The notes beneath the pieces were generated by a model that was given only the letters and a program-made list of their open reading frames with translations, was not told where the DNA came from and did no database searches. From positions 399 through 64,398 of the forward strand of contig CAZKMS010000008.1 in NCBI GenBank assembly GCA_964553805.1: 64,000 bases of DNA, in the 5' to 3' direction. Positions 1,143 through 6,330 of this stretch are shown piece after piece. Both the position numbers and the translations under genes were made by a program. The stretch is from an uncultured Verrucomicrobiaceae bacterium. Lineage in GTDB: Bacteria > Verrucomicrobiota > Verrucomicrobiia > Verrucomicrobiales > Verrucomicrobiaceae. The number at the start of each line of letters is the position of its first letter. Position 1 is the first letter of the stretch.

Positions 1143-1379
1143 ATGCCAGCACCCGCCACGCTCGCCGAACTCCCCGCCGGAACCTCCGCCGTGGTGCGCG
1201 ATTTCCTCAGCTCGAAACCCAGCCTCACCCGCCTGCGCGAGCTTGGGCTCGTGCCCGGCGTGCGCGTCGAGGTGGTTCGCCGCGCGCCCTTCGGCGAGCC
1301 GATCGAGATCCGCCTGCGCGGCTCCCATTTTGCCATGCGCAACAGCGACGCCGCCTTCATCGCCATCGAGGGCGCCTAG
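1143..1379 (+). CDS. FeoA-family small protein (SH3-like); no feoB nearby
   Basis: 78 aa, MPAPATLAELPAGTSAVVRDFLSSKPSLTRLRELGLVPGVRVEVVRRAPFGEPIEIRLRGSHFAMRNSDAAFIAIEGA, a typical FeoA pattern. It is in frame inside track ORF 714..1379. Confidence 0.75.
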   Translation: MPAPATLAELPAGTSAVVRDFLSSKPSLTRLRELGLVPGVRVEVVRRAPFGEPIEIRLRGSHFAMRNSDAAFIAIEGA

Positions 1380-1744
1380 CCGGCGTGACGCACCACGCGC
1401 ACCGCCACATCATCCACACCAGGCAGGATGCGTTTGCGCAGGGTGACGCTGACTCCGGCCAGGCAGCCGTTTTGCAGCAGCAGCGCGGCGATCTCGCCCG
1501 CCAGCGTTTCAATCAAACAGCGCGGCTGCCCGGCCGCCAGAGCGCGCACCTGACGGGCCACCGCATCGTAGTCCACCGTGGCGGAAAGCTCGTCGTTCAT
1601 CGACTCCACCCGTGTCCTCAACCTCAGCTCCAAATCGACACGCAAGGTCTGCCAGCCTGCCCGCTCCTCGTCCGGCACGCCAATTCGCACCGGCAGCTCC
1701 AGGCCGTTGATCAAAATGCTGTCCGGGGGTGGTTCGGCGCTCAT
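1376..1744 (-). CDS. folB: dihydroneopterin aldolase
   Basis: MSAEPPPDSILINGLELPVRIGVPDEERAGWQTLRVDLEL...TVDYDAVARQV matches the FolB pattern. The ATG at 1744 overlaps the stop of the upstream gene (ATGA at 1741-1744). Confidence 0.8.
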   Translation of the reverse strand: MSAEPPPDSILINGLELPVRIGVPDEERAGWQTLRVDLELRLRTRVESMNDELSATVDYDAVARQVRALAAGQPRCLIETLAGEIAALLLQNGCLAGVSVTLRKRILPGVDDVAVRVVRHAG

Positions 1745-2799
1745 TCGGCAGGCAGCATACCACGGCGCAGGCATTCTTCCAGCAGCACGCGTGTGGGTTG
1801 ATTGAGGTCCAGGCGCAACGCCTCAGCCGGCGTGACCCAGCAGAACTCCTGCGCTTCCTCATTGAGCCGCACCTGGGGTTCAGGCAGCGGGCAGGCGGCC
1901 ACGTAATTGAGCAGCAGAAAATGCGCCGAGCGCTGAAACTCCGGCGGCTCAATGCAGTCCTGCACCAGCACAAATGCCGGCTCGAGCAACGGCAGTCCCG
2001 TCTCCTCCAGCACCTCGCGCCGCAGCGCCTGCTCACAGGTCTCACCGCGCTGAATCTTGCCGCCTGGAATGCCCCAGCGATGACTCCACTTGTGGGTGCG
2101 GATCATCAAGCAGCGCCGGCGCGACTCGTCCGTGATGAGCGCTCCCACGGTGGCCACCGGCTGCATTCCTTCCCTGGCCTGCCAGCCGCCGAGCAGCCTG
2201 GGCAATGGAGCCAAATTCCTCAGCAGCACCTCCGGCGCGGATTGCATCAGCACCGGAACCGATTCGTAACCCGTGGCCACCGCCACGCTGATGACTCCCG
2301 CGGCATGCGCGGCGTCAATGTCATGCCTCATGTCGCCAATGAACGCCGTCTCCTCCGCCGCCATGTCCAGCTCCGCCAGCAGGCGCACCAACGCTTCACG
2401 TTTGTCCACCACGCCACAGGCGGCGCGCTCAAAAAAATCAAGCACACCGAGCGCGCGCGCCTGCTTTTCAAAGTGCTCCTGCGGCGCGCTGCTGAGCAAC
2501 ACCAGCCGCCTGCCCGTGGCGGCGCCGTATTCCAGCATCTCCCGCGCATGATCGAGCAATGGCACCACCCCATCCTCGGGAAAATGGCGCAGGTAAAGCT
2601 GCTTCAGTTCGGCAATGTCCACGCCTGGCAGCATCTCGTCGTAGAACTCCGTGAATGGCAGCCGGAACCGCAAACGGAAATCCGCTTCCGTCATCGGCTC
2701 CCGGCCGAAGTGCTGCAACATGGTGTTGGTGGTGCGCAGCACGCAGGGCAAATCGTCCGCCAAGGTGCCTGACCAATCGAAGATCAAGTTTTTGATCAT
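1741..2799 (-). CDS. HAD-superfamily hydrolase / Nudix hydrolase fusion protein
   Basis: N-terminal HAD motif I is FDWSGTL; a later GDMRHDIDAAHAAG is the motif IV region. The C-terminal half has a perfect Nudix box, GKIQRGETCEQALRREVLEETGL (Gx5Ex7REUxEExGU). Confidence 0.8.
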   Translation of the reverse strand: MIKNLIFDWSGTLADDLPCVLRTTNTMLQHFGREPMTEADFRLRFRLPFTEFYDEMLPGVDIAELKQLYLRHFPEDGVVPLLDHAREMLEYGAATGRRLVLLSSAPQEHFEKQARALGVLDFFERAACGVVDKREALVRLLAELDMAAEETAFIGDMRHDIDAAHAAGVISVAVATGYESVPVLMQSAPEVLLRNLAPLPRLLGGWQAREGMQPVATVGALITDESRRRCLMIRTHKWSHRWGIPGGKIQRGETCEQALRREVLEETGLPLLEPAFVLVQDCIEPPEFQRSAHFLLLNYVAACPLPEPQVRLNEEAQEFCWVTPAEALRLDLNQPTRVLLEECLRRGMLPAE

Positions 2800-3674
2800 G
2801 CCACGCGCCGCACCCGAACCTCCACCGTCATGTCCTGCGTGCCGCGTCCGAGAAAGCGCCCGCCAACCGGCCGCACATCCGCGTAGTCGCGCCCCACCGC
2901 CAGCTTGATGTAGCGCGGATCGGACTCGCGATTGTGCGTGGGGTCAAAGCCCTTCCAGCCGTAACCCGGGATGAAAATTTCGACCCAGGCGTGAGATGCC
3001 TCGATCTCGTAGTCCTCCGTTTTGCCGTTGTAAAAGTAGCCGCTCACGTAGCGGGCTGGAATGCCGCGGCTGCGGCACAAGGCAATCATGACATTGGCGA
3101 AATCCTGGCACACACCGCGCCGGGCCGCCAACGCTTCAGCCACGGGCGTGCGCGAGTCGGTGGCACCGGGCACATACGAGAACGTGTCATGCACATGATG
3201 GCCGAGGGCCACGGCGTTTCGCCACAGATCACTGACCCCTTCGCCGATGACCGAGCGCGCCTCCTCACTGATGGCGGCCGGCGTTTGAATGAGCTGCGAC
3301 TCCACCTGAAAATCAAACACCGACACATCCACCTCCGGCGCGTCCAATGCCTTCAATGTAAGTCCCTCCGGCACTTCGCCGCGCATCTCCGCCCGGGTTT
3401 CCACGACTGCGGAGGACACAATCTCCAGCGTCTCGTGCGGCCGCATGACATCGACGTAATCGACGCGGTTGAGGAAAAAATCACTGCGGGTGATGATTTT
3501 CACCTCAGGCGTGACGCGCAACTCGAACGAGGCGCAGCGCTGCAAGGGATCGCTGATCGGGCACAGCCTCACTTCGTTATGACTCTCCAGCACTTCGCCG
3601 TGGTAGCGGAAGCGGGTCAAATGCACGACTTTCAGGGTCATGCCTTCGATGAGTTGTGGAACGGACAAGGTCAT
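2796..3674 (-). CDS. transglutaminase-family protein (N-terminal Bact_transglu_N-like plus transglutaminase core)
   Basis: RRGVCQDFANVMIALCRSRGIPARYVSGY...SHAWVEIFIPGYGWKGFDPTH shows the Cys/His/Asp core. The stop overlaps the next start (ATGA at 2796-2799). Confidence 0.8.
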   Translation of the reverse strand: MTLSVPQLIEGMTLKVVHLTRFRYHGEVLESHNEVRLCPISDPLQRCASFELRVTPEVKIITRSDFFLNRVDYVDVMRPHETLEIVSSAVVETRAEMRGEVPEGLTLKALDAPEVDVSVFDFQVESQLIQTPAAISEEARSVIGEGVSDLWRNAVALGHHVHDTFSYVPGATDSRTPVAEALAARRGVCQDFANVMIALCRSRGIPARYVSGYFYNGKTEDYEIEASHAWVEIFIPGYGWKGFDPTHNRESDPRYIKLAVGRDYADVRPVGGRFLGRGTQDMTVEVRVRRVA

Positions 3675-3739
3675 GCGGCGGCACTTGGCAGCCTGACTTG
3701 GCCGCTACTGGGAACTGGGTCAAGCAGCGGTTGCAAACC

Positions 3740-4864
3740 TTAACGCTCAACCCCGTTCTGTTGCTGCTGTTCCTGCTGCTGATGGAAGCGGATTTCCGCC
3801 TGCATGTCCACCGGCGGACTGTACATGTAGATGTCGTAAAGATATTGCGCCACTGCTGCCAGCTCCTCCTGCACCTCGGTCACAAACTCGTGCAGCCCCT
3901 GCTGAAAGACATCGTCGGCGGTGAGAAATTTCAGGCTGCTGGCGAACTTGCCAAAACGGCGCACGCCGGTGCTGTGCGTGCCGCCCTCGCGGCCTTCGCT
4001 GATGAGCATGACAAACTGCCGGAGCTGGTCCACGCAGAAAAAAATCGAGCGCGGAAAGGATGCCTGGAAGATCAAAAACTCGGCGACTTTCCATGGCAGA
4101 ATGTCAGCCACGTAAAAGCGGCGGTAGGCCTCCAGCGCGCTGGTGGAGCGCAGCACTGCCTGCCACTGGGCGGCATCCACCGCGCCACCGACATCCGTGA
4201 CCTTCGGCAGCAAAATGTGATACTTCACATCGAGCAGGCGGCTGGTTTTGTCCGCCCGCTCCAGGTATTTGCCGAACTGAATGAACTCAAAACCCTCGTT
4301 GCGAGCGAACGTGGAAACCGTGATGCCCTGGAACAAGTGGGAGAACTGCTTGATCTGATCGTAAAACTCCCCGACGTCGCCGTCCCACACCTTGCGGATG
4401 TCGTGGCGTTTGATGAAGTGGTAGGCGTCGTTGAGCACCGTCCACATCTCGCTGGAGATCTGATCACGCACCTGGCGGGCGTTTTCACGCGCATTGGAGA
4501 GGCAGCACAGCAGCGAATTTGGGTTGCCCAGGTTGAAGGTGATGAAATCCGTGACGCTTTCGCTGTCGGCGGTTTCGTAGAGCTGAAAAAAGAGATCCTC
4601 GTCACCGATGGTGCTCAAGATCGGCCCCCAGTGCTCCTTGAGCGACTCGTCATCGAGGTCGCCAAAATCGAGCAAAAGCTGCAGGTTCACGTCGAGCAGT
4701 CGGGCCACGTTTTCAGCGCGCTCCAAGTAACGGCTCATCCAATACAAACTGCCCGCCACGCGCGACAGCATGACATTGCCTTGTTTGGCGCGGGCGATCT
4801 CTTCCTTGAACATGGGAGCTACGGTGGTGACTGGCATAATGGAAGCGTTTTGATCCTGCCTCAA
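3740..4864 (-). CDS. alpha-E domain-containing protein
   Basis: [29 protein letters not shown] and a second half [23 protein letters not shown] give the duplicated alpha-E ER motif. Confidence 0.8.
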
Positions 4865-6330
4865 GCGTGATTGGCGCCGCGCGCGTTCGGCTGGCGCAGA
4901 ACCCAGGTGTCCTTGGAGCCTCCACCCTGGGAGCTGTTGACGACGAGCGAGCCTTTGCGCAGCGCCACCCGGGTGAGACCGCCTGGTGTGACCGTGACCT
5001 TTTCCCCGTAGAGAATGTAGGGCCTCAAATCGATGTGGCGGCCCTCAAAGCACTCGCCCACCCAGGTGGGATGCCGGCTCAGCGAGATGGGATGCTGCGC
5101 GATGAAATTGCGCGGCTCCGCCTCAATGCTTTTGCGAAAGCACTCGATCTCGTCCTTTGAAGCCCAGGGGCCCATCAGCATGCCGTAACCGCCGGCCTCG
5201 TTGACCGATTTGACCACGAGTTTTTCGAGATTCTCCAGCATGAATTTCCGGTCATCGTCCTCGTAGGCCATGTAGGTGGGCACGTTCGGCAGGATCGGCT
5301 CCTGATCGAGATAGAACTTGATGATCTTCGGCACAAAACAGTACACCGCCTTGTCGTCGGCCACTCCGGTGCCAACCGCATTGGCCAGCGTCACATTGCC
5401 CGCGCGCGCGGCATTGAACAAACCGGGCACACCCAGCAGCGAATCCTCGCGAAACTTGGAGGGATCCAGGAAATCGTCATCGATGCGGCGGTAGATGACG
5501 TCCACGCGCATCAAACCGGCGGTGGTGCGCATGTAAACTTTTTGATCCCGCACCACGAGATCACGGCCCTCCACGATCGGGATGCCCATTTGCCGGGCCA
5601 AAAAGGCATGCTCAAAGTAGGCGCTGTTGAAAACGCCCGGCGTCAGCAGCACGACGGTGGGGTGGTCATCGCCGCCGAAGGTTTCCGGGGCGGCGTATTG
5701 CAGCGCTGCCAGCAAGTTTTGCGAATAACCGCCCACCGGCAGCGGCTTGACCGACTGGAACAGATCCGGAAAGGCGCGCTTCAGCGCGGCGCGATTCTCC
5801 AGCATGTAACTGGCGCCGGAGGGACAGCGCAGGTTGTCCTCAAGCACAAGGTAACGGCCCTCGTGATCGCGAATGAGGTCGGTGCCGCAAATGTGCACGT
5901 AGATGTCCTTGGCCACGTTCATGCCGGCGCATTCCCGGCGGAAGTGCTTGGCGCCCAGGATGTAGCGCGCCGGAATCACCCGCTCCTTGAGGATGCGCTG
6001 CTCGTGATAAAGATCGTGCAGAAAAAGATTGAGGGCCGTGATGCGCTGAATCAGCCCTGCCTCGATGTGCGCCCACTCTTCAGCGGAGATGACGCGCGGC
6101 ACGCAGTCGAAAGGAAAAATCCGCTCGGTGCCCTGGTCGTCTGAATACACGGTGAAGGTCACCCCATGGCGCATGAAGGAGGCGTCCACAGCGGTCTGCT
6201 TGTTGCGATATTCGTCGGTGGTGACTTCATTCAAGCCGGCCGCCACTGCCTCGTAGTGCGGCCTGATTTTACCATCCACCCCGACCATCTCGTCGAAGAA
6301 GTTTTCCGTCTGGTAGTTTTCCAAAAGCAT
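4861..6330 (-). CDS. circularly permuted type-2 ATP-grasp protein
   Basis: 489 aa, with ...[24 protein letters not shown]...[20 protein letters not shown]...[17 protein letters not shown]... This is the usual partner of alpha-E and transglutaminase genes. It has a 4-nt overlap with the alpha-E gene. Confidence 0.85.

Follow-up and report, generated by a model that had tools for sequence, protein, structure and literature searches.

The 64,000-nucleotide stretch analysed here (the window) belongs to contig CAZKMS010000008.1 of an uncultured Verrucomicrobiaceae bacterium, and it carries a gene in which a HAD hydrolase domain is fused to a Nudix domain, directly followed by folB, the gene for dihydroneopterin aldolase. 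We consider it rather likely that the HAD-Nudix protein works with FolB as a dedicated module, which would convert 7,8-dihydroneopterin triphosphate (DHNTP) to dihydroneopterin (DHN) and then to 6-hydroxymethyl-dihydropterin, the Nudix domain removing pyrophosphate and the HAD domain the last phosphate. Good evidence ties this module to folate synthesis; which step each domain carries out is inferred.

Association of the HAD and Nudix domains with FolB

An even sample of 400 genomes of the Verrucomicrobiota was surveyed for the HAD domain, which was found in 46 of them, and 29 loci were fetched to inspect their neighbours. FolB, which occurs in 367 of 401 sampled genomes, lies directly downstream of HAD in 28 of the 29. 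In one Akkermansia-type genus of the sample (g4), the three genomes without HAD are the same three that are without FolB. A second survey, using one genome per species, covered 80 further loci from Akkermansiaceae, Luteolibacter, Haloferula, Terrimicrobiaceae, Chthoniobacter and others, and FolB is directly downstream in 71 of these: HAD is followed by FolB at 36 loci, and HAD and Nudix by FolB at 35. HAD and Nudix occur with no FolB detected at eight loci, at least three of which end at a contig edge, and HAD occurs alone at one. Adjacency in so large a share of independent loci is not attributable to chance, and the case foreseen with the first-pass annotation, in which the fusion would usually be found away from folate genes, does not apply. 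The labels of the 80 species-level loci read Verrucomicrobiota, a verrucomicrobial group or "uncultured bacterium", bar one Candidatus Poseidoniaceae archaeon. The locus with that label (L115) has the order HAD, Nudix, FolB at 39% identity to the verrucomicrobial query and lies on a 3 kb contig of a metagenome-assembled genome assigned to a marine archaeon; misbinning is the probable explanation, not a true presence in archaea.

The junctions at the phylum loci take several forms. HAD-Nudix may be followed by FolB as in the window, or HAD may be followed by FolB across an ATGA overlap with no Nudix domain, or HAD and FolB may be fused in frame, as in the proteins of about 330 amino acids in Akkermansia-type genomes; other genomes encode a HAD-Nudix-FolB triple fusion of about 460-515 amino acids. 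Within Verrucomicrobiaceae there are hundreds of HAD-Nudix proteins with 58-86% identity to that of the window, and several forms of about 498 amino acids have FolB as a third domain. The Nudix subfamily is essentially confined to the HAD/FolB module, and a Nudix gene of the same subfamily also stands alone, overlapping FolB, without HAD. HAD and Nudix have each become linked to FolB independently and more than once, through adjacency as well as covalent fusion, which is classical Rosetta-stone evidence pointing to consecutive pathway steps. No other folate gene recurs near the HAD/FolB loci, where DciA is the commonest upstream neighbour, so that HAD, Nudix and FolB make up a self-contained unit.

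About half of the loci have no Nudix domain. Judged from these arrangements, it is the HAD domain, and not the fusion, that is FolB's constant partner. The first-pass annotation had put forward the HAD-Nudix fusion as a dedicated dephosphorylation module feeding FolB; conserved synteny and repeated FolB fusions speak strongly for such a module and the pathway context fits it, but the emphasis on the fusion has to be given up.

The pathway context was examined in the genome of the window, which is about 91% complete. It holds a single FolB match, the gene next to HAD-Nudix, which scores 82.2 bits against PF02152 (Pfam FolB; cut-off 31.8) and 52.2 bits against the FolB domain model TIGR00526 (cut-off 45.05), and misses the stricter equivalog TIGR00525 (62.2 against 72.15). 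Its residues E27, Y59, E79 and K104, which correspond to the catalytic positions of the Staphylococcus aureus and Escherichia coli enzymes, align with the conserved E, Y, E and K of Mycobacterium tuberculosis FolB (1nbu/1z9w). Away from the locus, the genome encodes FolK (HPPK; 110 bits, cut-off 54), FolP and a bona fide FolE2 (283 bits, cut-off 215); GTP cyclohydrolase IA (FolE-IA) was not found in it. None of its seven Nudix loci reaches the cut-off of the NudB equivalog, nor was there any match above that cut-off in four relatives. The pterin branch of folate synthesis is therefore complete in this genome except for the two dephosphorylations from DHNTP to DHN, and the module sits at that gap, directly before FolB. 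As a side observation, Pfam FolB scores in the phylum sample tend to be lower for FolBs partnered with HAD (E about 1e-15 to 1e-27) than for most of the other FolBs of the phylum (often 1e-28 to 1e-40), although the ranges overlap and this is no more than a tendency.

A HAD family with serine at the Asp+2 position

The first-pass annotation had described a 352-amino-acid HAD-Nudix protein with a motif I of DWSGT, in which the second Asp of the usual DxD is replaced, a perfect Nudix box, and a stop codon overlapping the folB start. These descriptions all stand. The open reading frame at 2799..1741 matches Pfam HAD_2 at residues 5-174 (E 1.9e-19) and Pfam NUDIX at residues 216-341 (E 2e-21, 76.9 bits against a cut-off of 21.1); DWSGT is read directly from nucleotides 2778-2764; residues 247-269 (G247-x5-E253-x7-R261-E262-V-x-E265-E266-x-G268-L269) fit GX5EX7REUXEEXGU exactly; and the TGA stop (1743-1741) overlaps the ATG (1744-1742) of a downstream frame that matches Pfam FolB.

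The AlphaFold2 model of the protein (mean pLDDT, the per-residue confidence, 94.7; pTM, the predicted TM-score, 0.75) has helices 17-30, 38-44, 49-56 and 62-72 between strand 1 and motif II, giving a Rossmann-like core with a C1 cap. The target-normalised TM-scores to the phosphoglycolate-phosphatase-like HADs 2hsz, 2ah5 and 3mc1 are 0.75-0.85, and the pyrophosphatase BT2127 is among the best fold matches of the domain. By sequence, the best matches in the Protein Data Bank (PDB) are weak (PtkA 6f2x, 3sd7 and 2hsz, about 1e-7) and all have DxD; no solved structure of the DWSG family was found in that search. The best sequence and fold neighbours are thus the class IA HADs of the phosphoglycolate phosphatase/PpaX/BT2127 group (COG0546-like), which have the same helical C1 cap. 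However, that group carries DxD, whereas the window HAD has DWSGT and scores far below its equivalog cut-offs. The name "phosphoglycolate phosphatase" (Gph) in the source annotation is not supported, TIGR01449 giving 53.6 bits against a cut-off of 180, and PRK13222 and PRK13225 are likewise far below cut-off for the HAD half; the annotation should therefore be corrected. Among NCBIfam models, none reaches its cut-off for the HAD half, the Nudix half or the standalone relatives, so that the family is without a curated name.

Ser10 occupies the position of the motif I general acid/base (Asp+2), and the domain thus departs from class IA HADs at this residue. Motif II is S103/S104, motif III is K133 and motif IV is G155-D156...D160. 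The nucleophile position D8 is invariant in all three alignments that we made (A1, A2 and A3); W9, S10, G11, K133, G155 and D156 are, like D8, invariant in both A2 and A3, and T12, D16 and D160 in A3 only. S103/S104 is invariant only among close relatives (A1), with Thr or Ala in some distant members, and a cap proline (P48) is invariant across the family. Among 1.8 billion representatives searched exhaustively, 5430 relatives were found, 63 of them below E 1e-30. DWSG[TV] is present in 133 of the 150 best representatives, and just one of the 150 has Asp at +2; all 30 phylum loci have DWSGT. The architectures of the 150 are standalone HAD (111), HAD with Nudix (17), HAD with FolB (16), and HAD with Nudix and FolB (6). 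The family has thus kept the aspartyl-phosphate and Mg2+ machinery while the Asp+2 acid/base is systematically Ser.

Candidate function and alternative explanations

The predicted order of events, including any channelling between the domains, is as follows. DHNTP, the product of FolE2, would enter the module, where the Nudix domain would remove pyrophosphate to leave dihydroneopterin monophosphate (DHNMP). The Ser-variant HAD would take off the remaining phosphate through an aspartyl-phosphate on Asp8, and it may also assist with anhydride phosphates. FolB would then cleave 7,8-dihydroneopterin to 6-hydroxymethyl-dihydropterin, which FolK and FolP would use. Translational coupling here, and fusion in relatives, would hold the three activities at a stoichiometric ratio and perhaps near one another. 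We prefer this two-step reading because it places HAD at the step directly before FolB, its frequent fusion partner, and because the two domains are complementary.

Several observations weigh against it. Essentially every member of this HAD family has Ser in place of the general acid/base at Asp+2, and under the established HAD mechanism canonical monoesterases need that Asp. LHPP (phospholysine phosphohistidine inorganic pyrophosphate phosphatase), the one HAD with Ser at +2 that has been characterised, is a NagD-like eukaryotic enzyme with a C2 cap, which belongs to a different HAD subfamily and is not among the sequence or fold matches of the window HAD. It nevertheless shares the motif I substitution (D-x-S-G-[TV]), and it hydrolyses pyrophosphate, imidodiphosphate, phospholysine and phosphohistidine (PMC11277029). 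The leaving groups of these substrates need no protonation, and it is chiefly this that casts doubt on the window HAD as a simple monoesterase. Of the earlier assignment of a HAD monophosphatase and a Nudix pyrophosphatase, therefore, the two domains are secure, and the split of the work between them is a prediction with which the pyrophosphate and P-N substrates of Ser-bearing LHPP sit uneasily.

The Nudix domain raises doubts of its own. Its half of the protein scores 23.2 bits against the NudB equivalog NF006961 (cut-off 103), and the NudB structure 2o1c matches it at only E 8e-5; the best PDB matches are NudI (3n77/6dt3) and AtNUDX1 (5gp0), with Ndx1 also among the fold matches. The fold matches of both halves are generic class IA HAD and Nudix neighbours that point to no particular specificity. 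Substrate specificity of Nudix enzymes is not readable from homology; the known DHNTP enzymes do not form one sequence family (PMC1971073), and the nearest relatives NudI and AtNUDX1 speak neither for nor against DHNTP specificity. In addition, a quick tree of the HAD domain requires the Nudix state to have changed, by gain or loss, at least six times on well-supported branches, once by a loss inside the window's own family; in this tree HAD-FolB persists through repeated losses of the Nudix domain. The genomes with HAD-FolB only have 3-9 other Nudix genes, which match the fused Nudix at the level of the Nudix box only, and no ortholog of it was found among them. The neat division into two steps therefore does not hold everywhere. 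Moreover, in one clade (G327, Luteolibacter sp. Populi and Haloferula BvORR071) both genes, HAD-Nudix and folB, are retained but not linked.

Distant relatives of the DWSGV type also point elsewhere, adjoining thymidylate and nucleotide genes and not FolB. They were scanned at 80 loci (L146-L225) on metagenome contigs with a median GC content of 35%, and FolB was not seen around them. The genes near these standalone HADs include dCMP deaminase (19 of 80), thymidylate synthase (ThyA; 8), DHFR (7) and a P-loop protein resembling dNMP kinases (5), the last directly adjacent to HAD in both loci checked; L155, L157, L158, L163 and L164 are examples with nucleotide-metabolism neighbours. This points to a nucleotide- or thymidylate-related role of the DWSGV branch, and it bears on the chemistry of the family, not on the window locus. 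Meanwhile, CYTH-domain genes (triphosphate-tunnel family) precede standalone DWSG HADs in two unrelated representatives: those at L048:4472-4999 and L050:1-441 are directly upstream, that at L047:1495-2115 is one small gene away, and the L048 gene comes after a phosphoribosyltransferase/radical-SAM fusion. Other distant standalone HADs are mostly on short contigs and have no consistent folate context. The neighbourhoods suggest that the HAD family as a whole handles nucleotide-like phosphates. It is conceivable, and we offer it tentatively, that the DWSG[TV] HADs are a distinct phosphohydrolase family for nucleotide-like polyphosphates, tuned by loss of Asp+2, of which one verrucomicrobial branch takes DHNTP fully to DHN, in the Akkermansia-type HAD-FolB fusions without Nudix, and passes the labile product to FolB.

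The same observations can be turned into a different division of labour, to which we give a limited chance. The Ser-variant HAD would then be a phosphoanhydride hydrolase that strips the gamma and beta phosphates of DHNTP singly, as an analogue of FolQ redundant with or alternative to Nudix, and an unrelated phosphatase would take the last phosphate. The family-wide Ser at Asp+2 and the precedent of LHPP for substrates with good leaving groups would be explained, as would the occurrence of HAD-FolB and Nudix-FolB each alone, as if interchangeable, and the HAD-FolB genomes without an ortholog of the fused Nudix. The distant relatives next to CYTH triphosphatase-type and nucleotide-metabolism genes also fit, and two pyrophosphatases, PpaX and BT2127, are among the nearest curated families. 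However, it is less parsimonious for one polypeptide, kept in dozens of species, to have two domains with the same task than two with complementary steps, and the step just before FolB would be left outside a module that is otherwise fused to FolB. Cation-dependent chemical loss of pyrophosphate from DHNTP has reportedly been observed, though our literature search for it found nothing usable; if it does occur, it would account for a Nudix domain that can be dispensed with and a phosphatase that cannot.

It seems unlikely that HAD merely clears a by-product, either the pyrophosphate released by Nudix or, if the divergent FolB cleaves phosphorylated dihydroneopterin directly, glycolaldehyde phosphate. 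Membership in the phosphoglycolate-phosphatase/PpaX clade by sequence and fold would agree with such a role, Ser at +2 suits pyrophosphate, the window FolB falls under the TIGR00525 equivalog cut-off, and the pairing of CYTH with HAD in distant relatives would fit a chain from triphosphate through pyrophosphate to phosphate. Yet the HAD-FolB fusions without any Nudix have no local source of pyrophosphate, FolB retains its canonical catalytic residues, and FolB-type aldolases are not known to accept phosphorylated substrates. It is improbable as well that the fusion is an enzyme for general house-cleaning of nucleotides (NudI- or MutT-like, with a nucleotidase), near folB through shared regulation or history. 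The best Nudix matches are indeed nucleoside triphosphate pyrophosphohydrolases (NudI and NUDT15), the DWSGV relatives occur in dNMP/thymidylate neighbourhoods, and the protein is named only generically in source annotations; but the independent fusions of both domains to FolB, and the adjacency across several families and at least two classes, are then hard to explain. Loss of the general acid/base could even mean that HAD has no hydrolytic turnover and serves FolB as a pterin-phosphate-binding, regulatory or scaffolding domain. This we regard as very improbable, because all members, down to about 27% identity, keep the nucleophile, the Mg-binding Asp residues and the motif III Lys, and nearly all have Ser or Thr at the motif II position, a pattern typical of an active enzyme.

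The locus and its comparison with known systems

The features of the locus are given in Table 1. A second in-frame ATG at 1774 is a possible alternative start of folB, and the start at 1744 is favoured because relatives, too, use ATGA overlaps at the HAD-Nudix/folB junction. At its other end, the HAD-Nudix gene overlaps its neighbour as well, its ATG (2799-2797) sharing letters with the stop of the upstream transglutaminase-like gene in an ATGA at 2799-2796 that the first-pass annotation had not mentioned. That gene is the last of a known conserved triad on the same strand (2796-6330), consisting of a circularly permuted ATP-grasp protein (489 amino acids), an alpha-E protein (374) and the transglutaminase-like protein (292). 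None of the three triad proteins was found at 109 other HAD loci, so the triad was rejected as part of the conserved module, and the five-gene arrangement of triad, HAD-Nudix and folB seems to be peculiar to this lineage. The region downstream of folB holds a convergent open reading frame (714-1379, + strand, 221 amino acids) with a C-terminal FeoA domain; it overlaps an opposite-strand frame of 435 amino acids (21-1328, - strand) that carries a NAGPA (phosphodiester glycosidase) domain and probably starts at an internal position.

Table 1. Features of the HAD-Nudix/folB locus (window coordinates)
Feature	Coordinates	Strand	Evidence
HAD-Nudix fusion gene (P0001), 352 aa	1741..2799	-	ORF translation, Pfam HAD_2 + NUDIX, AlphaFold2 model
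HAD domain, aa 1-205, class IA, helical C1-type cap	2185..2799	-	Pfam, alignments, fold matches
HAD motif I DWSGT, D8-W9-S10-G11-T12	2764..2778	-	Direct sequence reading
Nudix domain, aa 206-352	1744..2184	-	Pfam NUDIX E 2e-21
Nudix box, aa 247-269, perfect GX5EX7REUXEEXGU	1993..2061	-	Translation; conserved in alignment A1
ATGA stop/start overlap, HAD-Nudix gene/folB	1741..1744	-	Sequence; overlaps alike in relatives L020, L026-L030, L032
folB (dihydroneopterin aldolase; P0002), 122 aa	1376..1744	-	Pfam FolB 82.2 bits
Transglutaminase-like gene, 292 aa, upstream of HAD-Nudix gene	2796..3674	-	Pfam

The Nudix domain has its fold and an intact Nudix box in common with FolQ/YlgG of Lactococcus lactis, NudB of E. 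coli and AtNUDT1/NUDX1 of Arabidopsis. Like folQ, which in L. lactis is clustered with folate genes as folKEPQC (PMC1971073), the HAD-Nudix gene is clustered with a folate gene. Unlike NudB, of which it is no ortholog, the window Nudix is fused to a HAD domain, and the DHNTP role would be likened to that of NudB by analogy. Reviews describe the removal of the final phosphate, from DHNMP to DHN, as "non-specific" (PMC1971073; PMC4161248), and the textbook step has no dedicated gene. Here, by contrast, a specific conserved HAD subfamily without the usual Asp+2 is a candidate for it, placed where the activity is needed, before FolB, and often fused to FolB. The eukaryotic FolB-FolK-FolP protein likewise joins consecutive steps of the pterin branch in one polypeptide, with different steps fused (PMC4224340). 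Our literature searches found no paper assigning a HAD to DHNMP dephosphorylation and no description of HAD and Nudix partners of FolB.

The pterin branch of folate synthesis is textbook biochemistry and an antibiotic target, and the removal of its last phosphate is still attributed to a "non-specific" phosphatase. A conserved enzyme fused to FolB, present also in human-gut Akkermansia genomes, makes the question of the last phosphate testable. The family is also a natural test case for HAD catalysis in enzymes that lack the Asp+2 general acid/base. If a DWSG HAD does take DHNTP to dihydroneopterin, this would put a name to a long-unassigned folate phosphatase and reveal an unusual HAD mechanism.

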